Assembly: GCA_001189165.1 (NCBI GenBank)
Contig: LFCO01000001.1
Span: 10,987-74,986 of the forward strand
DNA: 64,000 bases
From: Parcubacteria bacterium C7867-005
GTDB lineage: Bacteria > Patescibacteriota > Minisyncoccia > Phycocordibacterales > Zambryskibacteraceae
Direction of reading: 5' to 3'
A program made the translations under genes and the position numbers. The notes under the pieces are model-generated. The model saw nothing but the letters and a program-made list of their open reading frames with translations, made no database searches and was not told the DNA's origin. How positions within the stretch are numbered: the first letter of the stretch is position 1; each line of letters starts with the position of its first letter. Below, in pieces: positions 25,473-63,520 of the stretch.

Positions 25473-25916
25473 CTACCGGCGCGTGATGACCATGTTCTGC
25501 GTGACGAGCTCGTCCCTCCCGCCGTTGCAGGAGATGACGATCCTCGTCTGCTTGCTCGCGGCCGAGGGGTACCACCGATGCGACGGACCGATCTCGATCG
25601 GCTTCATGTCGGTCGGGACCTTGAAGGTGTCGCCGCCGGCGTTGATCCAGCATTCGTACGCGTACTCGGTCACGAGACCGATCACGAAGGTCTTGCCCTC
25701 CGCGACCTTGTAGAACTTCTCCTCGTTGCCCATCTCGTCCCGGACCGCGTTCGGCGCGATCGGATTCGCATCGGTGTCGATGGTGAGACCCTCGGAGGTC
25801 ACGGTCATCTTGAGGATGGTGACGCTCTCCGTCTGCGCGGCGACCGTGTTCATGATCGGCGCGAAGAGGAAGGTCGCGAGGAGGACGAGGAACTGTCCGA
25901 ACCGGCGGGTGTGCAT
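25473..25916 (-). CDS. GC-rich secreted hypothetical protein (signal peptide)
   Basis: MHTRRFGQFLVLLATFLFAPIMNTVAAQ SP; balanced composition, unlike the overlapping Arg/Asp-rich ORFs in other frames. Confidence 0.5.
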   Translation of the reverse strand: MHTRRFGQFLVLLATFLFAPIMNTVAAQTESVTILKMTVTSEGLTIDTDANPIAPNAVRDEMGNEEKFYKVAEGKTFVIGLVTEYAYECWINAGGDTFKVPTDMKPIEIGPSHRWYPSAASKQTRIVISCNGGRDELVTQNMVITRR

Positions 25917-32387: not shown

Positions 32388-32503
32388 CCGATGTCTCCTT
32401 GTGGCAAAGCCACGAGAGTAGTAATGCAATCAACGAGCATCTAGTTCTGGCGGAATTTTATCACAAAACGACACAGAAGTCAAGTTGGAATTGAGCTTAG
32501 TTT

Positions 32504-48327: not shown

Positions 48328-49188
48328 TCAGAAAGCTTTCCTTACTTCACCAAGCTCTTCAAAGATTAATCCCTTTATTTCAAGTAATGAGAGTACTGCA
48401 TTCGCTTTACCGATATCCAGTTTTGATTTTCTGATGAGTTCATCTCTACCTCTGGGGATATCGAGTAGTTCTATAAAAAGTTTTTCCTCAGTACCCAAAT
48501 CATTCATATCAAAAAGTGTTTGACCTTCGTCTTTTCGTTTTATACCGAGTAGCTCGAGCACATCGTTCGCATCTCTGATGAGGGCAGACCCTAACCTGAT
48601 GAGCATGTGGGGACCATCTGAAGTGGGCGAGGTAGTTGGACCAGGGACTGCCCCTACTTCGCGGTTGTATTCTGTGGCCAGGCGAGAAGTTATGAGAGTA
48701 CCAGATTTTTTCTCTGCTTCTATGACAAGGGTCGCATGACACATCCCTGCCATGATTCTGTTTCTTTGGGGGAATGTATAGTATTGGGCTTTCATATCAT
48801 CATCAAACTCAGACAATAATCCACCGCCGGATTCTATGATCTCATTTGCTAGGCCTACATGTGCTTGCGGATGCAGAATTTTTCTGGACAATCCAGAGCC
48901 GGGGACAGCGATAGTTTGTAACCCAGCGTTGATAGCAGCGCGATGCGCGATCGAATCTATGCCCAGTGCGAGTCCGGAGACAATGGTGATCGGATAACCA
49001 GAGAGTCCAGCGATGATCGACTCACAAATTTCTCTACCATAGGCTGAGTACTTCCTCGAACCAACAACTGCTAGGAGCTTGTTGTTTTCTCTGGGCAACT
49101 CTCCCTCATACCTCAGGTTTTTGGCTTTGTCGTTGATCTCCTTTAATAGAATGGGGAATTCCCCAGGTAGGAGATCTCTAATGGTCAT
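48328..49188 (-). CDS. dprA: DNA-processing protein DprA/Smf
   Basis: Rossmann-like core LLAVVGSRKYSAYGREI...TIVSGLALGIDSIAHRAAINAGLQTIAV. Confidence 0.8.
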   Translation of the reverse strand: MTIRDLLPGEFPILLKEINDKAKNLRYEGELPRENNKLLAVVGSRKYSAYGREICESIIAGLSGYPITIVSGLALGIDSIAHRAAINAGLQTIAVPGSGLSRKILHPQAHVGLANEIIESGGGLLSEFDDDMKAQYYTFPQRNRIMAGMCHATLVIEAEKKSGTLITSRLATEYNREVGAVPGPTTSPTSDGPHMLIRLGSALIRDANDVLELLGIKRKDEGQTLFDMNDLGTEEKLFIELLDIPRGRDELIRKSKLDIGKANAVLSLLEIKGLIFEELGEVRKAF

Positions 49189-51664: not shown

Positions 51665-52621
51665 ATGAGTCAAGGTTTCTGGAACAAATTAAAAAAACCA
51701 ATCATGGTTCTCGCGCCGATGGCAGATGTCACTGATCCGGCCTTTCGACGTATTATCGCTCGGCATGGTAAACCAGACGTCACTTGGACCGAGTTCGTTT
51801 CTGCTGATGGTCTTGTCCTCGCACCAGAAGAGGGTAGGAAGAAACTCTTGAAAGATTTGGAATACTCTGAATCCGAGCGTCCAATCGTCGCTCAATTCTT
51901 CACCTCATCTCCAGAAAATATGGAGAAGGCAGCTAGACTCGCACGTGAGCTTGGGTTTGATGGCATAGATATAAATATGGGTTGTCCAGACAAGAGCATA
52001 GAGAAGCAGTGTGCTGGTGCTGCGCTCATCAAGAATCCAAAGCTCGCTCGGGAGTTAATTCGTTCTGCTAAACTCGGTGCGGGGGATCTGCCTGTATCTG
52101 TGAAAACCCGTGTTGGGTACAACAAAGAAGAACTCGATATATGGATAAAAGAGATACTCAGTGAATCCCCAGCCGTGCTCACGGTCCATGCGCGTACGAG
52201 GAAGGAGATGTCCAAAGTCCCCGCACGTTGGGAGCTAGTGAAGAGAGTGGTAGAGATGAGGGATGAGCTCGGTGTAGACACTTTGATACTGGGGAATGGT
52301 GATGTAGTAGATATTGATGATGGCAGGAGGAAATGCGAAGAGACTGGCGCAGATGGGGTGATGCTCGGCAGGGCGATATTTGGTAACCCGTGGTTATTTG
52401 CAGAACATATACCCACCACTAGAGAGAAATTATTAGTGATGGTAGAGCATACAAAACTATTTGAAAAATTACTCGGCGAATACAAAAATTTCGCCATTAT
52501 GAAGAAACACTATAAGGCGTATGTGAACGGGTTTGAAGGAGCAGGGGAGCTTCGTGGTCAACTGATGCTGGCTGTAGATGCAAGGGGGGTCGAAGAAGTA
52601 GTCCACAACTATCTGAAATAG
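51665..52621 (+). CDS. dus: tRNA-dihydrouridine synthase
   Basis: MVLAPMADVTDPAFRRI, DGIDINMGCP (catalytic Cys), TVHART; start MSQGF at 51665 (the ORF track extends to 51575 into a GC-rich leader). Confidence 0.85.
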   Translation: MSQGFWNKLKKPIMVLAPMADVTDPAFRRIIARHGKPDVTWTEFVSADGLVLAPEEGRKKLLKDLEYSESERPIVAQFFTSSPENMEKAARLARELGFDGIDINMGCPDKSIEKQCAGAALIKNPKLARELIRSAKLGAGDLPVSVKTRVGYNKEELDIWIKEILSESPAVLTVHARTRKEMSKVPARWELVKRVVEMRDELGVDTLILGNGDVVDIDDGRRKCEETGADGVMLGRAIFGNPWLFAEHIPTTREKLLVMVEHTKLFEKLLGEYKNFAIMKKHYKAYVNGFEGAGELRGQLMLAVDARGVEEVVHNYLK

Positions 52622-53157
52622 TGTTTTGACAGTCATCTTGCATATAGTATATTTAGATTTCTGGTGCTAAGCGGTAGCGGACAGACGTGTCTCTACGGAG
52701 CCCAGATCCTGCACCCTCAGTTCCATTCACCCCAGGAGGTTCACGGTGCCCCGACGTAACGCCCCGTCGTTCCACCTGAAGATCGCCCAGACCGCGTACC
52801 AGCAGGCGAAGGCCGGGATCCTCACCGGCAAGAGCGCGACCGATCCGCAGTACACCGACGGCGATTCCGCCGCGGCCATCCGCGCCTAGCACAAGGCGAA
52901 GAGCGCAACGCGCGGACACGAGGTACACCGACGCAAGACACACATCAGCGCCGGTGCGACCCAGATCGTCTTCCTGAAGTGAACACAACCGTCCGCAAGG
53001 ACACCTACCCGCACCGATTTCCATCGGTGCGAATCTTTTTATATAGGCTATTGACTTTATTTTGTATATATGCTAGGGTTAACTTGTTGAGGTCGAGCGA
53101 CAGGGAATCACCCTGTGAGGCCACAACAAGCACACTCCACTCGTTCGGAGGATCCAC

Positions 53158-53313
53158 ATGATCAGCCGCTCCCTCGCTCCGCCGTCCGTCGCGCTCCTCT
53201 CGGCCACCCACACGGGGGCCCGTATGAACACCATGGTCCATCGCGGCGCGAACATCGTCGGCATCGGCATCCACGGCTCGGGCGCGTCGCCCGCCGCCGG
53301 CTCCCGCGACTAG
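53158..53313 (+). CDS. candidate GC-rich mini-ORF (51 aa, MISRSLAPPSVALLSATHTGARMNTMVHRGANIVGIGIHGSGASPAAGSRD) with RBS GGAGG; coding status uncertain
   Basis: AT-rich promoter-like block (TTGACT..TATATA) at 53045-53075, GGAGG 6 nt before ATG, two downstream hairpins; ends at TAG. Confidence 0.25.
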   Translation: MISRSLAPPSVALLSATHTGARMNTMVHRGANIVGIGIHGSGASPAAGSRD

Positions 53314-53613
53314 CACGGCCGCGGCGCCGATCACTGTCATTCGACAGAAGGCATCAGCCCTTCGGTTGAACTGACGGCAACCTCTCGTGCTTCTCTGTAC
53401 GAGTAGGACTTCGTTCGAGTACGACTCGGGAGTGCCGACGGGGTGGATCGTTTGAATCCATCGCCGTCGGCACGACCCGACCCCCCGCGCACCCTAACCC
53501 GGTGCGTTTAACTTTTATAAAATTTCCCTGTGCGTGTATAATAAGATTCTGGTTGGGGATGCAGTTTGCAAACTCTAACCAGATGTTCTCACATCCTTCC
53601 ACGGAGTCCTGCC

Positions 53614-53736
53614 ATGAAAGACCGGCACTCGAGCACCAGACACCCGCGTATGGGAGTCACTCTCGAGACCAAGGGCCAGATGCGAAGCAAGACCGGCGGA
53701 TCCATCCGCTACATGTGGCCAACCCCAGGAGGCTGA
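53614..53736 (+). CDS. candidate GC-rich mini-ORF (40 aa) in the second promoter-terminator unit; may instead be an sRNA
   Basis: Extended -10-like gtgTATAAT at ~53540, GGAG 7 nt before ATG, hairpin gagcgactcatgtgagtcgctc + T-rich at 53766-53795. Confidence 0.2.
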   Translation: MKDRHSSTRHPRMGVTLETKGQMRSKTGGSIRYMWPTPGG

Positions 53737-53799
53737 TCCATGGAATACGGTGCGTGAACACCCCCGAGCGACTCATGTGAGTCGCTCTCTTTAATACAG

Positions 53800-53828
53800 T
53801 TGACAAAAATACGTATTGGGTTTATAAT
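53800..53828 (+). promoter_or_regulatory. consensus sigma70-type promoter TTGACA-17-TATAAT driving a ~150-nt GC-rich transcript that ends at hairpin 53979-54000
   Basis: Exact TTGACA (53800-53805), 17-nt spacer, exact TATAAT (53823-53828); downstream hairpin cggaccc-ttcg-gggtcc + tttgtg. Confidence 0.5.
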
Positions 53829-54136
53829 GGTCGTTAGAGAAGTGAACAGTATGGCAGAGAATAGATGGAAGCCGGGGCGCGATCCGTGGTGAGTCGTCGG
53901 GGCCCGGAATCCCCGCCGTTCCACTCGGGTCCGCCTCGGCCCCGTCTGCCCATCCTTCGTTTACTCGTTCCATTTACACGGACCCTTCGGGGTCCTTTGT
54001 GCTATATAAATTTTCAAAACAAACACCCCTTTACAAACCAAATTTTTTATGATAAGAAGATGTAAGAGGAAAGTGGTACCAAACTACTTTCGACTCAATC
54101 CGCCCTTTCAGTCTTCACGTTTCTCTAGGAGATCCC

Positions 54137-55009
54137 ATGCATCGCGCTCGGCTGTATCTCTTGCTTGCGGTGGGGATATTCCTCACCGCCTGCAGGAATG
54201 AGACCAACGTCTTCGGCCCCGGCAACGGTCCGAACGGACCGAATAACGGACCAGACGGTGGACGATCGGCGTTCGCATCGGCAGGCTTCAGGCCCGCTGA
54301 CACGACCATCGTGGTGAGCACCCGCTACCACGCTCTGGGCCAGATCTTCGTCGAGCAGGGTCGGTCACCGAACCTGCTCATCCGTACGAGGCAGTGCGTC
54401 CAGTACGTGGGCTCACCGCTCATCACCTGGACCGGCCAGTCTGGCTGGTACAACGTGGACGTCACCCTCCAGGGTGTGGCTACGTGCAGGGATTCGATCG
54501 TGTTCAAGTTCGCGCACGATACGACCATCACCACGTTCATCCGTGCGACGGTCGTCTCCGCTCCTGGTGGCCCCGGCATCCCCACGATGACGGTGACACC
54601 TCCGGGCGGTAGTGGTCCGGTCGGTACTGGTTCGCAGTCGAATTGCATCATCACTGGTGTCACTGACACGCGGTGCTGGGCATACTCGACGGATCCTTCA
54701 CGGATCGCTGTGGTTCAGAAGGATACAACCTTCGCAACCGCGACGAACCCGTGGACGGCCGGATCACATCTGTCCGGTGAGATCCGATTCATGTTCGCAG
54801 GTTCGGCGAATATCTGCAGGTACTGGGTCGTTGACCCACGAGTGGCACAGTGCCATCAGTGGAATGCGACGGTCCCGAGCCTGCAGTCGTCCGACATGAT
54901 GTCGGCGAGCTACGGACTTCGTGATGCGAAGCTGTCCGAAGAGGGCGGCCGTCTTTACGAGGTCGTCCTCGATCGGATGAAGCAGAACGGGGAGAAAATC
55001 CACCGGTAG
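54137..55009 (+). CDS. GC-rich lipoprotein (lipobox LTAC), hypothetical
   Basis: MHRARLYLLLAVGIFLTAC signal and lipobox; RBS TAGGAGATCCCATG; GC-rich. Confidence 0.5.
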   Translation: MHRARLYLLLAVGIFLTACRNETNVFGPGNGPNGPNNGPDGGRSAFASAGFRPADTTIVVSTRYHALGQIFVEQGRSPNLLIRTRQCVQYVGSPLITWTGQSGWYNVDVTLQGVATCRDSIVFKFAHDTTITTFIRATVVSAPGGPGIPTMTVTPPGGSGPVGTGSQSNCIITGVTDTRCWAYSTDPSRIAVVQKDTTFATATNPWTAGSHLSGEIRFMFAGSANICRYWVVDPRVAQCHQWNATVPSLQSSDMMSASYGLRDAKLSEEGGRLYEVVLDRMKQNGEKIHR

Positions 55010-55096
55010 CAAAAGACCCCAAAGGGGCGCCCAGCGATTAAGTTCGCTGGGCTTCTTATTTATATGAGTCTACAAATCGTTTGCTATACTAGACCC

Positions 55097-56140
55097 ATGA
55101 AAAAAGTAGAGAAACAGGAACAAGTTTTTTACAGAAAATATCGTCCACAGATTTTCAAAGAGGTGATCGGCGAAGATCATATAGTCAAAGTATTGGAGGG
55201 AGCGATCAAGCTTGGTAACATTTCTCATGCATATCTTTTCTCTGGTGCGCGAGGTACAGGTAAAACTTCTGTGGCGAGGATCCTCTCGCGTGAGTTGGGT
55301 ACGAATGCTTCAGATCTATACGAGATGGACGCCGCCTCTAACAGGGGGATAGATGATATCCGCAGTATCCGAGAATCTGTCTCCACACTTCCTTTTGAAT
55401 CCAAGTTCAAAGTTTATATCATCGACGAAGTTCACATGCTCACCAAAGATGCGTGGAATGCATTTTTGAAAACCCTTGAGGAACCACCAGCACACGTTGT
55501 CTTTATACTTGCGACTACAGAGATAGAGAAAGTTCCGGAGACGGTCGTCTCTCGTTGTCAGACATTTGTATTCAGAGCTCCGAATCAAAAAGTGTTGAAA
55601 GAATTTGTAGTTAATATCGCCAAGAAAGAAGGGTTCGTCCTGGCACCAGATGCTGTAGAACTCGTCGCCATACTCGGGGATGGGTCGTTCAGAGATACTC
55701 ATGGGATACTCGAGAAGGTTCTATCTTCGACAACAGATAAAAAGATCACTAGAGAAGAAGTAGAAGCGGTCACCGGTGCACCAAAGTCCAAACTTGTGAA
55801 GGATATCTTGGAGTCGGTGGTACTGCAAGATTTGCCCAAGGGTCTCTCTGCGGTGGGGCAGGCGAGTACATCGAATGCAGATATGAAGCTCTTTACCAAA
55901 CTTATCCTCGAGCGTTTGCGGTTTCTTTTTCTTCTGCGTCTGAAGACAGGTATGGATGAACATATCAAAGAAGAAGTGTCTGAGGATGATTTTGAATTCC
56001 TCACAGACCTCGCAAGTAAAGCTGGTCAGAGTATGACTGGTTCGGTGCTCCTCCGTTTTATTCAAGCATACGAAGATACAGGTCGAACAACTATCCCCGA
56101 ACTTGCCCTCGAGCTCGCACTAACTGATGTCATTAAATAA
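55097..56140 (+). CDS. dnaX: DNA polymerase III subunit gamma/tau (short form)
   Basis: AAA+ clamp-loader motifs LFSGARGTGKTSVARIL, DEVHMLT, SRC motif VSRCQTF; start MKKVEK at 55097. Confidence 0.85.
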   Translation: MKKVEKQEQVFYRKYRPQIFKEVIGEDHIVKVLEGAIKLGNISHAYLFSGARGTGKTSVARILSRELGTNASDLYEMDAASNRGIDDIRSIRESVSTLPFESKFKVYIIDEVHMLTKDAWNAFLKTLEEPPAHVVFILATTEIEKVPETVVSRCQTFVFRAPNQKVLKEFVVNIAKKEGFVLAPDAVELVAILGDGSFRDTHGILEKVLSSTTDKKITREEVEAVTGAPKSKLVKDILESVVLQDLPKGLSAVGQASTSNADMKLFTKLILERLRFLFLLRLKTGMDEHIKEEVSEDDFEFLTDLASKAGQSMTGSVLLRFIQAYEDTGRTTIPELALELALTDVIK

Positions 56141-56155
56141 TTAAAGAAGCCACCT

Positions 56156-56662
56156 CTACGAGGTGGCCTGCTTGGTGGGGGATCCAGTCCACCAAGAACG
56201 GATCTGTTCCACGAACCCGATGAAGTAGCCGATGATACAGAAGATGATCATCACGGCGACGGCCACTGGTCCGAGGATGAAGGACACAGTTTCCATAATC
56301 CAGAAATGGAAGTGCCCTCTGTTCATCTCGAAGTACACTTCTTCGTGGAGACCCTTCTCTCGGATCTCTTTGAAGGAGTAGTTCCGCTTGCTTCCGCCGA
56401 AGAACCCATCATCCCACACGGCCATCATGATCTCGATGTCGTTGAAACGATGTACCTTGCCACCCGGGAGGTGGCAGAGCATGTCATCGGTAAAGCACTT
56501 CAGGATGTCTGTCCAGGAATCGACCTCTCCGCCGTTCACGACGAAGGAGAGGAAGCTCAGGATGTACCATCCGAAGAGCGAGACGCCGAGCCAGCCGAGC
56601 ACGAAGAGGATCTGGAGCCAGAGCGACCAGCTGACGAAGGTGTCGAGCATGTTCGAGAGCAC
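56156..56662 (-). CDS. GC-rich hypothetical membrane protein (3 TM)
   Basis: 168 aa; N-terminal and C-terminal hydrophobic helices. Confidence 0.4.
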   Translation of the reverse strand: MLSNMLDTFVSWSLWLQILFVLGWLGVSLFGWYILSFLSFVVNGGEVDSWTDILKCFTDDMLCHLPGGKVHRFNDIEIMMAVWDDGFFGGSKRNYSFKEIREKGLHEEVYFEMNRGHFHFWIMETVSFILGPVAVAVMIIFCIIGYFIGFVEQIRSWWTGSPTKQATS

Positions 56663-56794
56663 GGGGTCTCCGTTTGTGGAGGGAGGGGGAACTCAAGTCC
56701 TATCTGAAATTACCTTATATATAACAAGTGGTCAATATTAAATAACTTAGTCAAGTTTATTGACTATTCAAGACGGAGGAGTAATATACTCGAC

Positions 56795-57142
56795 TAGGCA
56801 GTACGTTTGGGGTAACTGGTCATACTTGCCGCTAAGAGAGAGGCTGGAGCTAAGCTTAACGAGGGCACTTCCCAGTTAACCCTAGTTGAGCTAACTCGAT
56901 TCCCAGAAGGGGGAAATTCCGGAGAATGCTCCTACGGACCCCGACGCAAGTTAAGGTGGTTGTGAACTGAGGCTTTACCACCGAAGACGACGCGAGCGAT
57001 GTTCTATCGCTCAGGGACAAGTCACCAAAAGCTGGATGACGCCATCGCAAGTGGCAAACATCAATGAGGGGTAGCGCCCTTACCAGCATAGACTAAAAGC
57101 GACCAGACCCACCTGGGGCACACCGAAACATTGGTGTGCCCC
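56795..57142 (+). ncRNA. candidate structured ncRNA (~350 nt), class unknown; partial resemblance to the RNase P RNA P4/P5 region (GGGGAAATTCCGGAGAATGCTCCTACGG vs GGAAAGUCCauGCUCgcACGG)
   Basis: No ORF >77 aa; promoter TTGACT-17-AATATA (56760-56788) overlapped by inverted repeat tagtcaa-gttta-ttgacta; several internal hairpins; strong terminator ggggcacacc-gaaacat-tggtgtgcccc + T-rich (57105-57142). Confidence 0.35.
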
Positions 57143-57229
57143 TTGAACTTTTATATAAGTCCATCTTTTGTTGTTTTTGGAATAATACGTGATTGAATTG
57201 AGGCCAGAATTAAAGTATTCTGGCTACAT

Positions 57230-57300
57230 TGGGGGATCGTCTAATGGTAGGACAGAAGCCTTTGAAGCTTCTAATCTTGGTTCGATTCCAAGTCCCCCAG
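57230..57300 (+). tRNA. tRNA-Gln (anticodon TTG)
   Basis: U1-A72 acceptor TGGGGGA/TCCCCCA typical of bacterial tRNA-Gln, anticodon stem-loop GAAGC-CTTTGAA-GCTTC, T-arm CTTGGTTCGATTCCAAG. Confidence 0.85.
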
Positions 57301-57347
57301 CCAGTTTGAGGTAGGTTCAGAGTTCGAGGAGCATATAAATAACTAAT

Positions 57348-58064
57348 ATGAAAGAGATCCAAGAAGATATAAATAAATTTAAAGAATTTGAATCAAAGGA
57401 AGTTAATGCTGCCATTAAGGAATTAGAAGGCATTACAACTGAATCAAACAGGAAACATTTGCAAAGACTTGTTTATGTTAACTTGGTTAACCGCTTCGAT
57501 GCTCTTGTTGATAATTTGTTGCTTAAGTTTTCAATACTTGACGGCCTATTTAAAGTAAAGGTCTTGCAAGAGACAAAGGGTGAAGAAGTATTTCTCAAGG
57601 ATATTTATGAAATTTTGCTATCTGAAAATCCAAAAAATGCCGTACAACAACGAGTAGAAAATGTAGCTAGAGGTAAATTTTTAAGCCAAAGACACTCTTT
57701 AAAACTAAGAACCCTTTTATTTTTTTGCTTTTCTTGGCCAGAGACTGATCTTGATAGGCCGAGAGTTTTCACTAATAATGGATCAATCTTTGTCGACAAT
57801 AAAAGATTAAAACCTTATCAAATACCAGACACTGTAATTGGGTATGCTGATTGGTTGTATGCTAGACGTAACGCACTTGTGCATGGCGATGGAAAAAAAC
57901 TAGCTTCAAAAGATCTGGGATTTATGCAACAAAAGTTTGGTGCGAAACCCGCCTCTACGATAAGTTTGAAAATATCTTCAATTAAATCTGCTGTTCGGTT
58001 TTATAATGATCTATGCGAAGCTCTTTCAGTGCCCCAAGACTTAGTCCGAGGTGCATTAGAATGA
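57348..58064 (+). CDS. hypothetical protein with HEPN-like Rx4H motif (LYARRNALVHGDG); possible HEPN-family RNase / Abi-like protein
   Basis: 238 aa; AT-rich; all-alpha-like composition; RNxxxH motif near the C-terminus; 48 nt downstream of tRNA-Gln. Confidence 0.4.
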   Translation: MKEIQEDINKFKEFESKEVNAAIKELEGITTESNRKHLQRLVYVNLVNRFDALVDNLLLKFSILDGLFKVKVLQETKGEEVFLKDIYEILLSENPKNAVQQRVENVARGKFLSQRHSLKLRTLLFFCFSWPETDLDRPRVFTNNGSIFVDNKRLKPYQIPDTVIGYADWLYARRNALVHGDGKKLASKDLGFMQQKFGAKPASTISLKISSIKSAVRFYNDLCEALSVPQDLVRGALE

Positions 58065-58156
58065 TTAAATATTTAATTGATAAAAGCCTTATAGGGTCTC
58101 ATTGGAAAATTAACGAACCCGAGGAGGCAGCCAAGTTTTGATCTATAATTGATTCT

Positions 58157-58696
58157 ATGAACTTTTATGTGGCAATTGAGATTATTGGTTCTCTTGTTTA
58201 CTTAACACAAAAGATTCTTCTAAGTTTTAGTAAGAGAGTTGGCTGGGTATTGGGGATCATGGGTTCTGCTGCTTTTGCGACTGTAACTTTCCATAAAGGT
58301 TCTTATGCATACGGAATACTTGAAGTTACAAGTGGTATAATTTTTTTCTTTGGATTGATTTTATGGGGTAAGTCTGGCGCGAAAGAAAAATGGATGACGT
58401 TTGCAATGAGTACTGTAGCCATACTCGGTATTATTTTGGTGTCAGTTCTCAATCTTGGATCTCCAAATTGGATACTTGAGACTTTAGTGGTGATACTTTT
58501 TGCAATTGGGGCGATTTTTCTTGTTCTCAAAAAACCAATAGGTTGGTTCCTATATGGACTAGGACATCTAGTACTAACCATATACGCTTACCAACTTGGG
58601 ACTTACTACATTATGATCTTGCAGGTAGTGTCTTTACCCTTTGCTTTTATCGGTTATAGGAGGTTTGGGTTGGTTAATCTGGTCCGATATTATTAG
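58157..58696 (+). CDS. PnuC-like nicotinamide riboside transporter family membrane protein (6-7 TM)
   Basis: 179 aa polytopic protein; N-terminal IEIIGSLVYLTQKILLSFSKRVGWVLGI resembles the PnuC helix-1/2 pattern (IEAVGTIAGLL..WLAS.EKISNYFFGLI); by-eye only. Confidence 0.4.
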   Translation: MNFYVAIEIIGSLVYLTQKILLSFSKRVGWVLGIMGSAAFATVTFHKGSYAYGILEVTSGIIFFFGLILWGKSGAKEKWMTFAMSTVAILGIILVSVLNLGSPNWILETLVVILFAIGAIFLVLKKPIGWFLYGLGHLVLTIYAYQLGTYYIMILQVVSLPFAFIGYRRFGLVNLVRYY

Positions 58697-58711
58697 TGTT
58701 AATATGACGAC

Positions 58712-58951
58712 ATGAGCGATATTGAAATTTGTCCAATTTGTAGGAAGTCGTACTCTTCCAGAAACCCAAGAGTTCAGTATCATCTCCAATACAAACCAAC
58801 CGGAGAATGGATTTATGCATGTAGGCTATGTAATTATGCTGAGCATCTTTCTAGACCGAGAAATTGGAAAGGGTGGTATAAACCATGGATCTGGTCTCGT
58901 ATAAAATTGACTAGAGAGTTCGCTAAAGCCAGTCCACATTTAACTTATTAG
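58712..58951 (+). CDS. small zinc-ribbon protein (CPIC...CRLC)
   Basis: 79 aa; two CxxC pairs; Trp/Lys-rich C-terminus. Confidence 0.35.
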   Translation: MSDIEICPICRKSYSSRNPRVQYHLQYKPTGEWIYACRLCNYAEHLSRPRNWKGWYKPWIWSRIKLTREFAKASPHLTY

Positions 58952-59086
58952 ATAGACGCATTAGATATGTGGCTTAAGGTGCTGAAATTTAGCTAGTCCC
59001 GTCAAGTGGGGCTTGGTCCACTGGGGGTTCTAGCTCGAGACGGCTAGCAAATACTTGAAGTTTTAACTTTTGGTATAGTTAGTCAC

Positions 59087-59557
59087 ATGGCAAAAGTATG
59101 TGACCATACAAGTGTTGGAATGCTCGTTTGGAAAGAGGGGAAACTCCTTCTCATCGAAAGGAGGAAGTTTCCCTTTGGTTTTGCTATACCTGCAGGCCAC
59201 GTTGATGAAGACACAAGCTTTGAAAATGCAGCGATACGAGAGCTCAAAGAAGAAGTTGGGCTTGATGCAATAGATCTAGAACTAGTCATAGAAGGCAGAA
59301 AAGAAAATTTATGCAGGCGAGAAGACGGCTCTTGGCATTTCTGGAAAATATATAAAGTTGATAACAAAGGAGAACTAGAGCCAAGTTCTGAGGAGACAAA
59401 AAGAACGGGTTGGTACTCAAGTGAAGAGATCCAGAAATTAGGAGAGCGTACAGAAAAGTATCTGGCCGGGGAGATTTCTGATGAAGAGTGGGAGGGTGAT
59501 CCAGGGCTCGAACCAGTGATGTATAATTGGTTTAAAGAACTAAACATAATACGATGA
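59087..59557 (+). CDS. Nudix hydrolase
   Basis: Nudix box AGHVDEDTSFENAAIRELKEEVGL (REUxEExGU). Confidence 0.8.
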   Translation: MAKVCDHTSVGMLVWKEGKLLLIERRKFPFGFAIPAGHVDEDTSFENAAIRELKEEVGLDAIDLELVIEGRKENLCRREDGSWHFWKIYKVDNKGELEPSSEETKRTGWYSSEEIQKLGERTEKYLAGEISDEEWEGDPGLEPVMYNWFKELNIIR

Positions 59558-59964
59558 TGAAAATAACAATTTGTGGATCCATGAAATTTAATGACAAGTT
59601 CCTTGAACTAAAGAGCGAGCTGGAAGCTGTTGGCCACGAAGTCCTCATGCCGGTGGCCGTGAGCGGTCTAGATTATTGGGAGGATGATGGTACGAAACGT
59701 ATTGAGGCGAAGAAGGGTCTCGGACTCGTCGGGAAACATTTAGACAAAATTACCGAATCTGAAGCTATTCTGGTGGCAAATTATACTAAGGGAGACATTG
59801 AAAACTATATTGGGGCCAATACTTTTCTTGAGATGGGTTATGCAAAATATAAAGATAAAAAGATCTTTACTATCAATCCTTTACCTAACCAAAAATATAT
59901 TGATGATGAGTTGTTATCTTTTGAACCTGTTGTTTTGAATGGAGATATTTCTAAGATTGTATAA
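59554..59964 (+). CDS. nucleoside 2-deoxyribosyltransferase-like (Rcl/NDT family) protein
   Basis: MKITICGSMKF Rossmann-like start and GANTFLEMGYAKYKDKKIF matching the NDT catalytic-Glu region (G.AFE.GYA...KP); 4-nt overlap with the Nudix gene. Confidence 0.55.
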   Translation: MMKITICGSMKFNDKFLELKSELEAVGHEVLMPVAVSGLDYWEDDGTKRIEAKKGLGLVGKHLDKITESEAILVANYTKGDIENYIGANTFLEMGYAKYKDKKIFTINPLPNQKYIDDELLSFEPVVLNGDISKIV

Positions 59965-60058
59965 CCTAAATTAGCATGTCATCAATTGGGGGCTATCTGA
60001 CTGGCTAAATAAGTTAATTTAAAAAATCCAACTTCTGCATTGACTAATTATTTTATAA

Positions 60059-60622
60059 TTGTATAGTCGGAGGTGTAGCGAGCTCATCCTGAGAGAGCTA
60101 CAAAACCTTAAGGAGGGTGACCCTATGGGGAGCCTTGTCAGTGAGACACCTTTCTCTGAAGTTTCCGCGACCATGGAGCTCCTTGCCAAGCATGGAGTCG
60201 AGAGGGAGGATCTGGTGTTCTTTCGTAGGTACCACAATGGGTTCGCGCCCAGCGTGGCGAATATGATCAAGAGCGGTCGAATGCTGTTCGCCCAGGCCAT
60301 GGGTCCTAACGAAGAAGCGGGGCTGTCTGCTGTCGCTCAAATAGTGGATCGTCGAATTCTCTACGACATCGCGATGTATCCCGACAGTCTCACTTCTGTA
60401 AGGATCGCTGCTGTGGGCAAACTTCCGCAGTCCGAGCTCTACGACGTGGCCCGGATCACCTGGGAAGCAGAAGTTGCAGAAGCGGCAATGCTCCACCTCG
60501 ATGCCGGATACCTCAGTATGTTGTGGGGGTGCGACTCGATCGGAGCTGGGCTCAATCGAGGTGTGATCCACAGGCGATGGGAGGAGCTAGAAAATCAGCG
60601 TCTTCAGAAAGGTCGTCGCTGA
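60059..60622 (+). CDS. GC-rich hypothetical protein
   Basis: 187 aa; no motif; followed by terminator agtccggatc...gatccggact + tttt (60641-60700). Confidence 0.35.
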   Translation: MYSRRCSELILRELQNLKEGDPMGSLVSETPFSEVSATMELLAKHGVEREDLVFFRRYHNGFAPSVANMIKSGRMLFAQAMGPNEEAGLSAVAQIVDRRILYDIAMYPDSLTSVRIAAVGKLPQSELYDVARITWEAEVAEAAMLHLDAGYLSMLWGCDSIGAGLNRGVIHRRWEELENQRLQKGRR

Positions 60623-60815
60623 GTAGGTTCCATGTAGTCGGTTGTTATCTCAGTCCGGATCCCACATAACACTTGTGGTGATCCGGACTTTTTGTATAAA
60701 CATATAAGCCTATATCACAGTAGGGCGGGCAACTTGACTTTTACAATTCGACGAGACATAATAAAAAAGTTCCTTTCAATTCATTATTCACATTCATTAT
60801 TTAATTTAGTTCACA

Positions 60816-61130
60816 ATGCCACACAAATCTAGCGATAAAATAATCGGTATTTGGAAATTTTCCCACAAAGTCAGCCCAGAGACTCTGGCTGAAGTAGCAG
60901 AAAAATGGGCAACAGAGGATTCTAGGTACGAACACCTGTATGTCAGACAGGTATCCAAGGATCAGCACGGTATAGGTTTCGAATATCGAGCATACGAAGG
61001 GATAGATTCTGAGAATCACAAACAGAGTTACGACGAGTACTTCGAAAAAACAACAGACAAACTTAAGAGAGAATTCGGTAATGATTTGGCTGGTTGGGAC
61101 ATCTCTTCCAGCTCATACGTTATCAAGTAG
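60816..61130 (+). CDS. hypothetical protein
   Basis: 104 aa; promoter TTGACT-17-CATAAT upstream (~60745-60775); terminator aaataccccgcaaggggtatttt downstream. Confidence 0.4.
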   Translation: MPHKSSDKIIGIWKFSHKVSPETLAEVAEKWATEDSRYEHLYVRQVSKDQHGIGFEYRAYEGIDSENHKQSYDEYFEKTTDKLKREFGNDLAGWDISSSSYVIK

Positions 61131-61249
61131 TAGTTTAAATAATTGAAAGGAATCAAAATACCCCGCAAGGGGTATTTTGTTTTGGTTGTTTTATTTGCTA
61201 CAGCATTCATTTCCTAGCAATAAAATAAATTTGACTCAGTGGCATATTC

Positions 61250-61588
61250 GTGATTTTATTGCGAAAGAAGTATAAACCCACCGCGACGAGGTGTCGGATG
61301 CCGGACAGTAAGCAGGACATCAAGACGTTCGTGAATCATAGCGGGACGTGGTCGCACGACGGTCCCTTCTCGGTGGAGCTCACCCCAGATGCAAACAAGC
61401 TCATCGCTCCACCCGGAGCACGGATCGAGGGAGACACCCTCCACTTCCGTAGTGGGCGAGTGAGTCAGTCCGTTGGTGGTATCCAATTCTTCTCAAGCGG
61501 GAAGCACTTCTACTGGGGGTACAAGTTCCTCAAGGTCATCCGGGACGGGGCCGGCAACCTCCTTTGGGTGAACGATAATTACCGGTGA
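61250..61588 (+). CDS. GC-rich hypothetical protein
   Basis: 112 aa; likely start MPDSKQ at 61298; followed by repeat-terminator copy 1. Confidence 0.3.
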   Translation: MILLRKKYKPTATRCRMPDSKQDIKTFVNHSGTWSHDGPFSVELTPDANKLIAPPGARIEGDTLHFRSGRVSQSVGGIQFFSSGKHFYWGYKFLKVIRDGAGNLLWVNDNYR

Positions 61589-61605
61589 CCTCGATTCGAA
61601 GTGTC

Positions 61606-61638
61606 TAAGCCGATCCTAACAGATCGGCTTTCTTGTAT
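61606..61638 (+). repeat. terminator-hairpin repeat, copy 1 (taagccgatcctaacagatcggctttcttgtat)
   Basis: 31/33 identical to the 62510-62541 copy; 9-bp stem aagccgatc/gatcggctt + T-rich. Confidence 0.7.
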
Positions 61639-61755
61639 ATAAATCCAACGGATATTCATGAGATGTGAGTAATTGACAATGTATCTTAAGCATGTTATTT
61701 TTTTGAATAGACGTAGTTATCTTGATACAACACCACTTCACCCGAGGACCGCTCC

Positions 61756-62508
61756 ATGCTTTCCGTATTGGTCGTTCTCCTGTTTGGTTGGCTCGTCTCT
61801 GCGGTGGCCGTCAAGCAGGCCAGCTACATCCTCATCCACGGTTCGATCTTCGAATCGCTGAGGAACTGGATCGAAGATGGCATGCACAGAGAGTGGTTCG
61901 GGTTCGAAAAGCTCAGAGAGCTTTTCACCTGCCAACTCTGCATGACCACGCAGGTGAGCATCTGGTTGGTGGCGATACCGCTCCTACTCTCGGGGAGGGT
62001 CCCAGCTGTCGGATTCGTCGAGACTGTCGCCGGTTTCGCCGTGACGGTTTTCGCGGTCTCTGGACTTGCGATCTGGTTCTGGAATCTGTCCGAGTCCGGG
62101 CCCAAGAGGCTCGAGGCTGATCGTAAACGCTACGACCAGATCATCATCTCGCTACGTAAGGAGATCTCCTCTGGCGCCCCGCCCGAGCAGACATCGGCCC
62201 CGTCGAGTTACATGGATCGAGAGATGTTCGGTCGTTTGCTCGACCACATCGAATCAGCATGCAAGGGGCATGGGTGTGGCTATAGCCGAAGGGATTGCCG
62301 ACGCGAAGAAGCACGCCAATTCACTGTCAACCAGATGCGCTTGGGCATGCTCGCTCAACGCTTCGGAGTTGAAGTGCTTCTCGGCGCCCTCGACGAGACG
62401 CTCCCGGAGTACTTCAGGTTGAGGTGGCGCAACAAGAGCAGTTCGTCCCACCTGAATTCATTCAGGGATAAGGTCTTCGCCAGACTCACCGCGATCACCA
62501 CCCCATAA
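61756..62508 (+). CDS. GC-rich membrane protein with N-terminal DUF1360-like domain (FTCQLCMTTQVSIW) and Cys-rich cytoplasmic tail
   Basis: 3 TM; CxxC between TM helices resembling DUF1360 SCPFCxGxW; bracketed by near-identical terminator hairpins. Confidence 0.45.
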   Translation: MLSVLVVLLFGWLVSAVAVKQASYILIHGSIFESLRNWIEDGMHREWFGFEKLRELFTCQLCMTTQVSIWLVAIPLLLSGRVPAVGFVETVAGFAVTVFAVSGLAIWFWNLSESGPKRLEADRKRYDQIIISLRKEISSGAPPEQTSAPSSYMDREMFGRLLDHIESACKGHGCGYSRRDCRREEARQFTVNQMRLGMLAQRFGVEVLLGALDETLPEYFRLRWRNKSSSSHLNSFRDKVFARLTAITTP

Positions 62509-62509
62509 C

Positions 62510-62541
62510 AAGCCGATCCTAACCGATCGGCTTTCTTGTAT
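62510..62541 (+). repeat. terminator-hairpin repeat, copy 2 (aagccgatcctaaccgatcggctttcttgtat)
   Basis: See copy 1. Confidence 0.7.
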
Positions 62542-62575
62542 GGAAATTTAAACACGCTAGTGCTAGTGTGTTTAT

Positions 62576-63520
62576 GTGAAATTTGACCCCAACCTATTCA
62601 TTAAGACGACCTGCACTAGCCTACAGGAGTTCAAGGGGGGAACAGTTTTGGTGACTGTTTCTGGTGGTGTGGACTCTTCCACTTCAGCAGCCCTAATTCA
62701 AGAGGCGGGGATAGATAGTAAATTAGTTTTTATCGATACAGGATTTTTAAGAACTAATGAAGCTGAATCAGTAAAAAGATATTTTGGAAGCAAGTTAATC
62801 GTCCTTAATAAAAGTAAGCTCTTCTATAAGGCACTTAAAAATTGTCATAATTCTGAAGAAAAAAGAGAAGTATTCAGACATCTATATTTTAAGATCATTA
62901 AGGAGTACGTGTTGAAAAATAATATTCCTGCGATTGTTCAGGGCACACAATTTCATAAAACAAGCACCAAGCGCTATCACAACTCGCCAACGAAAGATTT
63001 TTTAACTCTTCCAATAAAAGTTATAGAACCAGTGAGGGGATTATCCAAACCTCAGATAAGGCTCTTAGCAAAGAAGTTAGGACTGCCTGATGAAGTAGTG
63101 AACAGACGCCCCTTCCCGGGTCCGGGTTTACTTATAAGGTTCGGTGGTAATTACACTCCTAGAAAATTAGACTTAATTAGAAAAGCTACGGGTATTATCG
63201 ATAAGTTGATAGAAAAAGATAAAAATAAATACAAAAGATGCTACCAGATATTTCCTTATATTTGTGAGGAGCTGGCCCCATATGTAAACAAAGAATCCAG
63301 AGGGGCAAAAGGACACATCGTATTGATTAGAGCCTTAGAAGCAAAAGATTTAGATGGGGAAATTATTTACACACCTTTTATACTACCTGGGTCTACACAA
63401 GAGGAAATTGTAGGTTTACTGATGAAGATAGATGGTATAAGTAGGGTGTGTTTCGACATGACGCCTAAACTTGGTTCAGGTAAAAAAGTAAAACCCGGTG
63501 GTACCATTGAATATGCATAG
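62576..63520 (+). CDS. PP-loop ATP pyrophosphatase, GMP-synthase-C-terminal-domain-like (GuaA subunit-B-type)
   Basis: SGGVDSS PP-loop; C-terminus ...KPGGTIEYA resembles the GMP synthase dimerisation tail (...PGTIEWE); AT-rich. Confidence 0.55.
   Translation: MKFDPNLFIKTTCTSLQEFKGGTVLVTVSGGVDSSTSAALIQEAGIDSKLVFIDTGFLRTNEAESVKRYFGSKLIVLNKSKLFYKALKNCHNSEEKREVFRHLYFKIIKEYVLKNNIPAIVQGTQFHKTSTKRYHNSPTKDFLTLPIKVIEPVRGLSKPQIRLLAKKLGLPDEVVNRRPFPGPGLLIRFGGNYTPRKLDLIRKATGIIDKLIEKDKNKYKRCYQIFPYICEELAPYVNKESRGAKGHIVLIRALEAKDLDGEIIYTPFILPGSTQEEIVGLLMKIDGISRVCFDMTPKLGSGKKVKPGGTIEYA

Follow-up and report, generated by a model that had tools for sequence, protein, structure and literature searches.

What fills the spacer between dus and the downstream lipoprotein gene of Parcubacteria bacterium C7867-005, an ultra-small member of the Paceibacteria (CPR/Patescibacteria), and where did its contents come from? 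The spacer lies within a 64,000-nt stretch of contig LFCO01000001.1 (the window) and measures 1,515 nt, against 292–821 nt in relatives, with contents that differ from genome to genome. Its surroundings are stable. The order serS, hypothetical gene, dus and, across the spacer, lipoprotein gene is kept in relatives, with holB next in most, and the boundary lipoprotein gene is syntenic with their Big_2-type lipoprotein genes. The neighbourhood here comprises parB, a relA/spoT-like gene, topA, dprA (3 kb upstream of the island), serS, dus, the lipoprotein gene, holB and a NUDIX gene. Within the island, GC reaches 0.63–0.68 in the unit bodies described below, compared with 0.456 for the whole window. 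The core genes of the window have a GC3 of 0.26–0.53, and all small ORFs in the corresponding spacers of relatives have a GC3 of 0.82–0.93. When the DNA of the island was compared with plasmids, phages and viral contigs, nothing matched, so neither a plasmid nor a phage is indicated as vector. The dus/Big_2-type lipoprotein spacer is a hypervariable spot in this clade that collects small, self-contained units, high in GC and foreign in composition. Elsewhere, the window holds about ten further high-GC3 orphan genes, mostly for secreted or membrane proteins.

Positions 52626–54005 consist of four tandem units, U1 to U4, each with a predicted sigma-70-type promoter, a GC-rich body and a predicted intrinsic terminator (Table 1). 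On balance we think it probable that these are four small units of foreign composition, in which U1–U3 would be small-protein mRNAs and U4 a small RNA with a core derived from Gemmatimonadota. Promoters and terminators were called as consensus matches. Between 52000 and 55200 there are five promoter-like sites where shuffled sequence leads one to expect 1.9 ± 1.4, and ten terminator-like sites against an expected 2.4 ± 1.5; the scan recovers the four unit terminators and the promoters of U1, U3 and U4. The promoter of U2 falls outside the scan calls and was placed by its conservation in loci L084 and L120. Every unit folds better than its shuffled sequence (z = −3.4 for U1, −6.1 for U2, −3.45 for U3 and −3.2 for U4), and the 3′ region of U2 contains a near-perfect hairpin at about 53432–53475 (hairpin z = −5.2). 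Public annotation overlays the units with spurious antisense ORFs, and both the small ORFs and the RNA are missing from it.

Table 1. Predicted features of the island and its downstream boundary (positions in the window)
Feature	Position	Strand	Details
U1 promoter, TTGACA-16-TATATT	52626–52653	+	11 of 12 consensus positions
U1 5′-terminal stem-loop	52660–52706	+	nt 1–47 of the minimum-free-energy fold; begins at the predicted transcript start
U1 SD AGGAGG (52734–52739) and 47-codon ORF, GTG 52746 to TAG 52887–52889	52734–52889	+	
Hairpin over U1 start codon, GGUG-CCC-CGACG[UAACGCCC]CGUCG-UUC-CACC	52745–52776	+	
U1 frame beyond TAG, 30 codons to TGA 52980–52982	52890–52982	+	GC3 0.80, p = 0.02
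U1 intrinsic terminator, 9-bp stem and T tail	53010–53040	+	
U2 promoter, TTGACT-17-TGcTAGGGT	53051–53079	+	promoter and leader conserved in L084 and L120
U2 5′ stem-loop	53083–53130	+	fold
U2 SD GGAGG (53147–53151) and 51-codon ORF, ATG 53158 to TAG	53147–53313	+	
U2 structured 3′ region	53314–53486	+	no codon periodicity; unit z = −6.1
U2 intrinsic terminator	53487–53517	+	
U3 promoter, TTTATA-17-TATAAT	53514–53542	+	
U3 5′ stem-loop	53548–53583	+	fold
U3 SD GGAG (53603–53606) and 40-codon ORF, ATG 53614	53603–53736	+	
U3 intrinsic terminator	53766–53795	+	
U4 promoter, perfect TTGACA-17-TATAAT	53800–53828	+	TTGACAAA block invariant in five genomes
U4 non-coding RNA, about 165 nt, rod-like hairpin and own terminator	53835–54000	+	
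U4 core hairpin	53868–53945	+	87.8 bits, E = 8e-17 with model R1, built from 16 sequences of both phyla, the window sequence among them; single copy in window
U4 apical loop CCCGGAAU	53903–53910	+	
U4 intrinsic terminator, GGACCC-UUCG-GGGUCC and UUUGUG	53980–54003	+	
GC-rich lipoprotein gene (downstream boundary)	54137–55009	+	GC3 0.74, lipobox LTAC

The initial annotation had recognized the organization into promoter, body and terminator, but counted three units, having overlooked the promoter of the unit with the TAG-interrupted frame. It also described the units as repeated; they are not sequence repeats of each other, and nothing is shared between them beyond 26 nt at the ends of the U1 and U2 ORFs. 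The promoters it had set at about 53540 and, as a perfect consensus, at 53800–53828 were both found by the scan, the first as TTTATA-17-TATAAT, and its terminators were found where it put them, at 53010–53031, 53487–53507, 53766–53787 and 53980–53995, all on the plus strand. For the promoter near 53045, the TTGACT element holds (53051–53056), but the TATATA proposed as its −10 is a less likely choice than TGcTAGGGT (53071–53079), which we prefer because the 17-nt arrangement is conserved in both L084 and L120.

A small ORF was accepted when a Shine–Dalgarno (SD) sequence stood 5–9 nt before a start codon and three-base periodicity was present in that frame. U1, U2 and U3 show all of these features and U4 does not. 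GC at the three codon positions is 0.64/0.55/0.91 in the U1 ORF (Fisher p = 7e-5) and 0.63/0.63/0.94 in the U2 ORF (Fisher p = 1e-5), each with an SD–start spacing of 6 nt; set against the core genes, these high GC3 values indicate that both ORFs are codon-structured. Periodicity is weaker in the U3 ORF (GC3 0.75, p = 0.046). Only frames with an SD in front of them are periodic; U4 and the 3′ part of U2 are not. The ORFs read earlier, from the GTG at 52746 to the TAG at 52887–52889, of 51 aa at 53158–53313 and of 40 aa at 53614–53736, are present as described. The accompanying scheme of one ribosome-binding site and one mini-ORF per unit fits U1, U2 and U3, but the last unit (53835–54000) contains no credible example of either. 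Of the two possibilities that had been left side by side, small-protein genes or sRNAs, the former suits U1 and U2, through GC3 periodicity in the claimed frames, and U3, through synteny, while the latter suits U4, a structured RNA whose supposed mini-ORF falls away. When the five peptides and five further proteins of high GC3 were compared with Pfam and NCBIfam, no family scored above threshold. U1–U3 would each run from the promoter through a 5′ stem-loop, probably protecting the transcript, to an SD 6–7 nt before the start, the ORF, a structured 3′ part and the terminator. That anatomy is observed, translation is predicted, and the three units are probably short mRNAs for small orphan proteins.

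The individual ORFs differ in what they resemble. At its 3′ end the U2 ORF shares 80% identity with a small ORF of L051, and a Gly/Ile-rich stretch occurs in the U2 peptide and in this relative. Among 1.84 billion representatives the U2 protein had a single match, a spurious one to a translated repeat array, and among viral contigs it had none; a homologue search with the 78-aa read-through product of U1 gave no candidate. With no U1 or U2 homologue in the databases searched, their periodicity could be the relic of a captured gene fragment. U3, by its position, matches a small basic ORF, MA(R/A)K.L..W...NKKG, that follows dus in L001, L002, L087 and L091. Identity between U3 and this family is 18–38%, and the case rests mainly on synteny and on the leader/SD sequence. 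The family has a conserved N-terminus in the four relatives, and L002 and L091 differ by a few synonymous changes over a small number of sites. Judged from these features, U3 is most likely a divergent, fast-evolving orthologue of the small basic post-dus protein.

The U1 frame raises the question of how its internal TAG is read. Both the U1 and U2 stops lie within ...CGCG(C/A)CTAGCAC, which bears out the shared ending pointed out earlier. Because its paralogue, the U2 ORF, stops in the same CGCGNCTAGCAC context, the U1 TAG may be an ordinary stop, and because dus itself ends in TAG, the standard code applies and TAG is a normal stop here. After the U2 TAG, in this same TAGCAC context, there is no downstream periodicity. 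The composition of the U1 frame beyond its TAG hints at a former coding extension, although it may be due to chance. U1 is possibly truncated by the TAG. The hairpin over the U1 start codon has an architecture like that of the U4 apical hairpin and a 14-mer, CCCCGTCGTTCCAC, in common with Gemmatimonadaceae variants; the evidence is weak, as model R1 gives this hairpin no score.

U4 has a different character. Its sole sizeable ORF (66 aa, 53865–54065) crosses the terminator, and GC at codon positions 1–3 is 0.73/0.65/0.65, without periodicity. The promoter and terminator are conserved in five genomes; the hairpin occurs once per locus, with no extra copy in the window, and the complement of its loop is found nowhere else in the window. 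In an alignment confined to the five Paceibacterial copies, 17 of the 44 predicted pairs carry changes on both sides, compared with 3–9 in slid controls and 8.5 ± 1.9 in 500 shuffles, none of which attained 17 (a test that does not amount to a probability). The bodies of U1–U3 are not alignable among relatives for a covariation analysis, and in U2-type loci the promoter and 5′ hairpin alone align. We searched Rfam 15 (4,227 families), taking as a match a covariance-model score at or above the family gathering threshold. The whole window gave 13 tRNAs only, and no family matched any of the units; at E ≤ 10 the island gave three chance-level matches of 12–16 bits, and a tmRNA/tRNA search found none in the island. 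From its substitution pattern, U4 qualifies as a conserved, structured non-coding RNA. Its apical module, which does not vary in either of the phyla discussed below, comprises the 8-nt loop CCCGGAAU, a pyrimidine–pyrimidine mismatch and a 3×3 internal loop, AGU/UUC. A partner, protein or RNA, may bind at this module, and U4 may act as a stable decoy or sponge-type sRNA.

The core of U4 has a close counterpart in another phylum. By blastn, positions 53874–53935 align over 62 nt, at 96.8% identity, with a conserved hairpin found after recA in Gemmatimonadaceae, and 60 of these 62 nt are identical in L099, L118 and L119. Of 72 positions, the window copy shares 64 with Gemmatimonadaceae, versus 37–51 of 72–73 with its own Paceibacterial relatives. 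An exact 23-mer scan of metagenomes recovered 24 loci, 23 of them contigs with 64–71% GC. The hairpin lies 3′ of recA in those contigs whose upstream sequence is long enough to tell, and the RecA of contig L103 is 90–100% identical to proteins named Gemmatimonadaceae or Gemmatimonadota. In CP130612.1, from a cultured organism, the hairpin is followed by CTCTTTTTTCGG, about 40 nt past the recA stop. The T-run behind the hairpin in Pseudogemmatithrix spongiicola marks it as the recA terminator there, and a U-tract follows the hairpin in several Gemmatimonadaceae lineages. A joint alignment of 16 sequences from both phyla contains 24 pairs, 12 of them compensatory, with 94.8% of cells paired versus 85.5% in shuffles (0 of 500). 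Rfam matched none of 12 Gemmatimonadaceae loci. The post-recA hairpin is thus an element that Rfam lacks although its conservation in Gemmatimonadaceae is strong, and the invariance of its loop and internal loop suggests that a specific partner binds it in the regulation of recA/recX. Our literature search found nothing on the motif, on a link between Paceibacteria and Gemmatimonadota, or on a recA–recX hairpin.

How did the hairpin come to stand in a Paceibacterial spacer? Neither the window nor any Paceibacterial locus examined contains recA, and the U4 element does not lie 3′ of it; in the window it sits between a small ORF and the lipoprotein gene, under its own promoter. Four of 89 other Paceibacterial loci carry the element, all of them in the closest relatives (Dus 76–77% identical to that of the window), and L125, which lies beyond the 89, repeats the U4 copy of L001. 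Element GC is 0.76 in the window, 0.55–0.64 in the Paceibacterial relatives and 0.65–0.73 in Gemmatimonadaceae, and the values in the relatives look like an amelioration series. The high-GC donor proposed in the initial annotation is upheld, directly for U4 only, with Gemmatimonadota in place of Actinobacteria. Most likely, the 75-nt core moved horizontally from Gemmatimonadota to the ancestor of a small Paceibacterial clade, where it would have come under a consensus promoter and gained a separate terminator. Selection on structure has since maintained it, as the compensatory changes show, and the copy in this genome would have hardly diverged or been refreshed from the donor.

Transfer from Gemmatimonadota has to be weighed against common descent or convergence. 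The metagenome scan was limited to exact 23-mers, so the hairpin may occur in further phyla, and a transfer specific to Gemmatimonadota would then be over-read. This limit, together with the invariance of the apical module in both phyla, could speak for an ancient, widespread motif that was inherited vertically or arose convergently in each. We regard that as quite improbable, given an element restricted to close relatives among the Paceibacterial dus loci, with GC far above that of the host genome, absent from Rfam, and nearer in its window copy to Gemmatimonadaceae than to sister genomes. Apart from rRNA and tRNA-like molecules, no sequences are known to keep 97% identity over 62 nt between phyla. 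The island might also be decaying junk, namely fragments of foreign DNA taken in by a naturally competent, nucleotide-scavenging cell and left in a permissive spacer, their signals incidental or inherited and none of them functional. Contents that change in almost every relative, the orphan status of U1 and U2, the codon-like sequence behind the U1 TAG and the proximity of dprA all agree with such decay. It is nevertheless unlikely in our view, since consensus or near-consensus promoters stand directly before each body and a terminator closes each, SD spacing is optimal in three ORFs, the N-terminus of the U3 family is kept across four relatives, and U4 shows compensatory substitutions with its promoter and terminator conserved in five genomes.

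Other explanations concern the nature of the units themselves. Structured RNAs often appear as GC-rich intergenic regions of AT-richer genomes. On those grounds, and with every unit folding better than shuffles and ORFs present on both strands, all four units could be non-coding structured RNAs whose short ORFs are accidents of stop-poor, GC-rich sequence. This seems very improbable to us: periodicity appears only in SD-preceded frames and in neither U4 nor the U2 3′ part, Rfam has no match beyond chance level even at E ≤ 10, and the unalignable bodies of U1–U3 lend no covariation support. The initial annotation had named RiPP-like precursors and small toxins among the possibilities, which several tandem small ORFs and the Gly/Ile-rich stretch of U2 and its L051 relative might recall. 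Gene context largely refutes a RiPP precursor cluster or type I toxin–antitoxin-like genes and makes them highly improbable: there are no modifying or maturation, export or immunity genes within ±10 kb, no match to Pfam, NCBIfam or other families, and no minus-strand promoter-like sites within 52650–54130, and the peptides are polar or basic, neither hydrophobic nor membrane-spanning. Finally, the sharp switches of GC at the 100–400-nt scale across the island could betray an assembly chimera or contamination with high-GC reads. This is scarcely credible, because AT-rich promoters and terminators are interleaved with the GC-rich bodies, the island sequence is identical in the public MAG GCA_002396705.1, a second deposit of this genome, and in a Logan assembly made independently from SRR2043728, and four independent MAGs, derived from other samples, carry syntenic, diverged copies of U3 and U4. 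We retain as probable the reading of the island as three small-protein mRNAs and one sRNA with a transferred core.

Read in this way, the island recalls several known systems without coinciding with any. Enterobacteria make sRNAs from 3′ UTRs and terminators, among them CpxQ, SroC and DapZ. The Gemmatimonadaceae element, a long hairpin at the recA 3′ end, is a typical source structure for such RNAs, whereas the Paceibacterial U4 is free-standing, with its own consensus promoter, a second, separate terminator and no known Hfq/ProQ context. U4 also resembles the rod-shaped housekeeping RNAs, 6S RNA and small SRP RNA, in its size of about 165 nt, the strength of its promoter, its long and imperfect helix and the conservation of its apical module. 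It differs from 6S RNA in lacking the central bubble and from SRP RNA in its loop CCCGGAAU, which is closed by G-C and differs from the GNRA tetraloop and symmetric-loop motif of SRP RNA; it matches neither in Rfam and is restricted to a handful of genomes. An SRP-like reading of GGCCCGGAAUCC was rejected, as no pairs would close its GGAA and Rfam offers no match. U1–U3 are built like other genes for small or orphan proteins, with an SD, a start, 40–51 codons and their own promoter and terminator, but their GC3 of 0.75–0.94 is unlike that of host core genes. As in integron cassette arrays, short variable units of foreign composition stand in tandem at one chromosomal spot; here, however, each unit has its own promoter, the 10-kb flanks on either side contain no integrase domain, and the units have no attC-like repeats in common. 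Horizontal acquisition by Patescibacteria has been described for protein-coding genes and genomic islands, with Omnitrophota, Bacteroidota and others as donors (PMC12455944); Gemmatimonadota is not mentioned there. Our case is likewise one of probable acquisition across phyla by an ultra-small bacterium that is likely a symbiont, and shared genes have served there as hints to partners, but what was most clearly transferred here is a non-coding RNA element of 75 nt.

Why would such a cell keep this hairpin? One doubtful, long-shot idea is that U4 is a host-mimic RNA. The clade would live on or with Gemmatimonadaceae, over-express the hairpin of its host and bind the host factor, disturbing recA/recX or an RNA-binding defence or repair protein; the hairpin would have been picked up, and perhaps re-acquired in this genome, from the host's post-recA site. 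A more modest version takes the shared element as a genomic fingerprint of a partnership between Paceibacteria and Gemmatimonadota. If that is true, the high-GC3 small ORFs and the roughly ten orphan genes would be more host-derived or host-directed cargo. The transfer, if true, would make U4 a rare documented sRNA gene fashioned from the terminator hairpin of another phylum. Scarcely any CPR bacterium from soil or fresh water has a known host, and a 97%-identical shared element would offer a concrete, testable pointer to a partner.

Reading of positions 52000–55000 together with consensus scans bore out the promoters, terminators and ORFs that the initial annotation had placed in the dus–lipoprotein spacer, here called the island. 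The scans returned 5 promoter-like sites, where 1.9 ± 1.4 would be expected, and 10 terminator-like sites, where the expectation is 2.4 ± 1.5, and those on the + strand line up as four units, U1 to U4. Only three had been counted, as the U1 promoter (TTGACA-16-TATATT) was overlooked, and a better U2 −10 element than the one first chosen is TGcTAGGGT at 17-nt spacing, an arrangement repeated in the relatives' loci L084 and L120. Unit bodies have a GC content of 0.63–0.68 (0.456 for the whole window), and comparison of U1–U4 with one another revealed no sequence repeats linking them. Every unit has a predicted fold more stable than those of its dinucleotide shuffles (z = −3.4, −6.1, −3.45 and −3.2 for U1 to U4), with a predicted 5′ stem-loop at the putative transcript start in each of U1–U3. 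The sequence suggests that U1–U4 are transcribed and U1–U3 translated.

Coordinates of the units and associated features (window positions unless a relative's or Gemmatimonadaceae locus is named)
Feature	Position	Strand	Remark
U1	52626–53040	+	promoter-to-terminator
U2	53051–53517	+	promoter-to-terminator
U3	53514–53795	+	promoter-to-terminator
U4	53800–54003	+	promoter-to-terminator
U1 start hairpin	52745–52776
U2 near-perfect hairpin	53432–53475
Antisense ORF across U1	52653–53024	−	123 aa
Antisense ORF across U2	53005–53340	−	111 aa
dprA	48328–49188	−
High-GC3 orphan gene	11284–12003	+	no Pfam/NCBIfam match
High-GC3 orphan gene	14346–14942	+
High-GC3 orphan gene	17010–17324	−
High-GC3 orphan gene	25473–25916	−	no Pfam/NCBIfam match
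High-GC3 orphan gene	30291–31214	−
High-GC3 orphan gene	31344–32429	−
High-GC3 orphan gene	56156–56662	−	no Pfam/NCBIfam match
High-GC3 orphan gene	61250–61588	+	flanked by promoter/terminator sites
High-GC3 orphan gene	61756–62508	+	no Pfam/NCBIfam match; flanked by promoter/terminator sites
GC-rich gene	60059–60622		flanked by promoter/terminator sites
24-nt terminator hairpin	61607–61630
24-nt terminator hairpin	62510–62533
Small ORF after dus	L051 10353–10529		59 aa
G-rich-loop hairpin after basic ORF	L001 11099–11148
G-rich-loop hairpin after basic ORF	L002 ~3117–3165
G-rich-loop hairpin after basic ORF	L091 ~9082–9130
RecX extended across hairpin	L118 4127–4204
RecX extended across hairpin	L119 4127–4204
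RecX extended across hairpin	L100
RecX extended across hairpin	L103

In relatives, serS, a hypothetical gene, dus, the spacer and the lipoprotein gene follow one another as they do here, in most of them with topA and dprA ahead of the block and holB after it. The lipoprotein and Dus proteins have exact copies on DGYO01000004.1 (GCA_002396705.1) and in the Logan assembly of SRR2043728, two assemblies that do not differ in island sequence; the next-closest Dus proteins are 74–79% identical, all from Paceibacteria/Patescibacteria MAGs. Spacer content differs among these relatives: L001, L002, L087 and L091 hold a basic ORF plus U4, and L084, L088, L120, L122 and L124 each hold other GC-rich units with small ORFs. 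A U2-type promoter and 5′ hairpin are common to the window, L084 and L120, the bodies being unalignable. Some 3 kb upstream of this hotspot lies dprA, encoding a natural-transformation DNA-processing protein; its proximity is consistent with foreign fragments entering by DNA uptake, and proves nothing. When tested for membership of known systems, the island did not class as a RiPP cluster or as a type I toxin–antitoxin locus, two readings offered initially, nor as an integron array, 6S RNA or SRP RNA.

The window's genes fall into two codon classes, the second comprising about ten orphans at GC3 0.73–0.95, most of which encode a signal peptide or membrane segments. Pfam and NCBIfam returned no match for the lipoprotein or for the orphans so marked in the table. 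This class could possibly stem from a foreign source, from biased gene conversion or from selection. A scan of 55000–62700 placed promoter/terminator sites around three GC-rich genes, and near-identical terminator hairpins, AAGCCGATCCTAAC(A/C)GATCGGCTT, each trail one of two neighbouring GC-rich orphans.

Short coding frames had been proposed within the units, and U1 and U2 show their codon structure in exactly those frames. GC at codon positions 1/2/3 is 0.64/0.55/0.91 in the U1 ORF (Fisher p = 7e-5), 0.63/0.63/0.94 in U2 (Fisher p = 1e-5) and 0.50/0.60/0.75 in U3 (p = 0.046); the U2 3′ region has no codon periodicity. SD sites (AGGAGG, GGAGG, GGAG) sit 6–7 nt ahead of GTG or ATG. Because the GC3 periodicity falls in SD-preceded frames, U1 and U2 are codon-structured and of the high-GC3 type; dus and other core genes lie at GC3 0.26–0.53. 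Neither peptide has a match in Pfam or NCBIfam or a detected homologue: no candidate shared enough words with U1, and U2, searched exhaustively with phmmer against 1.84 billion representatives, had a sole match, rejected as a translated repeat array. Over 56 nt, the 3′ end of the U2 ORF shares 80% identity with a post-dus small ORF of L051, a more distant Paceibacterium. That ORF carries a GIGIGIGIG stretch; the match of its 3′ end to U2 is at the DNA level and includes a 1-nt indel that alters the C-terminus, and the GC-rich region after it is broken by a run of N.

At the U3 position, L001, L002, L087 and L091 carry a basic ORF of 28–38 aa (MA(R/A)K.L..W...NKKG; GC3 0.82–0.93) that shares with U3 the leader TTCCACG(G)AG(G)TC(C)TGC(C)ATG. 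In L001, L002 and L091 a long, conserved hairpin whose loop is G-rich (GGGUUUGGGGGGGA) lies 3′ of the basic ORF and shows a few compensatory changes; a near-perfect hairpin in U2 (z = −5.2) is comparable. Public gene calls run ORFs antisense across U1 and U2; since these frames lack GC3 signal, the calls are probably spurious products of the high GC content. The small ORFs of the island, although orphans, are nothing out of the ordinary.

The U1 frame had been described as TAG-interrupted. It is indeed open for 30 codons past TAG 52887, up to TGA 52980, and this stretch has a GC3 of 0.80 (p = 0.02), but a 30-codon open frame is unremarkable in 62% GC DNA. The evidence gives no reason to assume recoding, and the TAG may recently have cut short a 78-codon ORF. 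The TAGCAC context reported at mini-frame ends recurs as CGCG(C/A)CTAGCAC in both the U1 and U2 ORFs, whose final 26 nt align in frame with 20 identities. Since dus also ends in TAG, the two ORF ends are alike and U2 shows no periodicity past its TAG, the codon may simply be a stop that two small, weakly paralogous ORFs have inherited.

U4 is of another kind. A blastn match of 32–54 nt revealed syntenic copies in L001 and L002, and later also in L087 and L091; L125 is almost identical to L001. Paceibacterial copies share a conserved promoter block, TTGACAAA, and a conserved terminator, and RNAalifold gives a long hairpin plus terminator. Among the few Paceibacterial copies, from five genomes, 17 of 44 pairs are changed on both sides; the figure for shuffles is 8.5 ± 1.9, with none of 500 attaining 17, and slid controls give 3–9. 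The mini-ORF assigned to this last unit falls away, as U4 has no codon periodicity and no ORF conserved among copies. A proposed Rfam scan gave no match for U4. The structure of U4 is conserved and, as judged from sequence, U4 is an RNA, so that the suggested sRNA option holds for this unit, with U1 and U2 instead codon-structured.

Scanning a metagenome collection for exact matches to the apical 23-mer GRGGCCCGGAATCCYCGYYGTTC returned 24 loci: L104, a near-copy of L001, and 23 contigs of 64–71% GC. On contigs reaching far enough upstream, a ~75-nt hairpin lies shortly 3′ of a gene ending ...MAEIEEKVKVVLG...EE*, which encodes RecA, and several contigs run on into recX. The L103 RecA is 90–100% identical to proteins named Gemmatimonadaceae/Gemmatimonadota, including that of the cultured Pseudogemmatithrix spongiicola. 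In the complete genome of P. spongiicola (CP130612.1), the hairpin begins ~40 nt past the recA stop, CTCTTTTTTCGG comes after it, and RecX begins 230 nt beyond. Because a T-run follows the hairpin here and in several other lineages, it presumably works there as, or within, the recA terminator. Across Gemmatimonadaceae lineages the hairpin is nearly invariant while its flanks differ freely, which argues for strong constraint. Rfam holds no model for it, and our literature search turned up nothing on the motif or on a comparable recA–recX hairpin.

RecX coding sequence was rejected as an explanation of the hairpin, although some MAG annotations carry RecX through it. On several Gemmatimonadota contigs, ORF finders too extend RecX upstream across the hairpin, giving MVSRRGPESP(P/S)FHSGPP...; in P. 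spongiicola the extended frame stops directly past the hairpin. The upstream-extended starts are probably mis-called.

When 5 Paceibacterial and 11 Gemmatimonadaceae sequences are aligned together, the 16 yield 24 pairs, 12 of them compensatory, with 94.8% paired cells versus 85.5% in shuffles (0 of 500) and a covariation score of 0.311 versus 0.04–0.10 in slid controls. The 8-nt loop CCCGGAAU and the 3x3 internal loop AGU/UUC are invariant in both phyla, as is a pyrimidine–pyrimidine mismatch that swaps between C.U and U.C from one lineage to the other. R1, a covariance model built on these sequences, the window copy among them, finds a single copy in the window (87.8 bits). Of 89 other Paceibacterial loci it recognises the hairpin in four (L001, L002, L087, L091), and in every Gemmatimonadaceae locus it detects one copy, on one strand only; L125, examined in addition, scores 57 bits, as does L001. 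The E-values of R1 are rough, the calibration having been shortened. The U1 start codon lies inside a small hairpin, GGUG-CCC-CGACG[8-nt loop]CGUCG-UUC-CACC, laid out as in the apical module of U4 and the Gemmatimonadaceae hairpin and sharing the 14-mer CCCCGTCGTTCCAC with the L093-type Gemmatimonadaceae variant. R1 gives it no score, and its kinship with the U4 apex is only a lead.

Window positions 53874–53935 are identical to the Gemmatimonadaceae contigs L099, L118 and L119 at 60 of 62 nt. Over 72–73 aligned positions, the window core has 55–64 matches to Gemmatimonadaceae and just 37–51 to its own relatives; the L002 and L091 cores are likewise slightly closer to Gemmatimonadaceae than to the window. 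The element has a GC content of 0.76 in the window, 0.55–0.64 in relatives and 0.65–0.73 in Gemmatimonadaceae. The high-GC donor first suspected thus finds a match for the U4 core, but not the actinobacterial source. The simplest reading is that the core passed from Gemmatimonadota to Paceibacteria, a transfer that would predate the split of the five genomes because the element's position is the same in all. Vertical inheritance, or an ancient hairpin without transfer, carries some weight. Under transfer, lineage-specific drift would have followed, held in check by structure, with the window copy either unusually conserved or refreshed from the donor.

U4 may act as a decoy or sponge, offering its invariant apical module for a partner to bind. 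The complement of the loop recurs nowhere else in the window, and no partner or target was found; we think it improbable that such a partner comes from a Gemmatimonadota host. Surveys of horizontal transfer in Patescibacteria cover protein genes, and Gemmatimonadota are absent from their listed donors (PMC12455944); U4, in contrast, is a predicted RNA element with a Gemmatimonadota match. The U4 RNA is an undescribed family with a probable, and unusual, cross-phylum origin that would carry a testable ecological implication.
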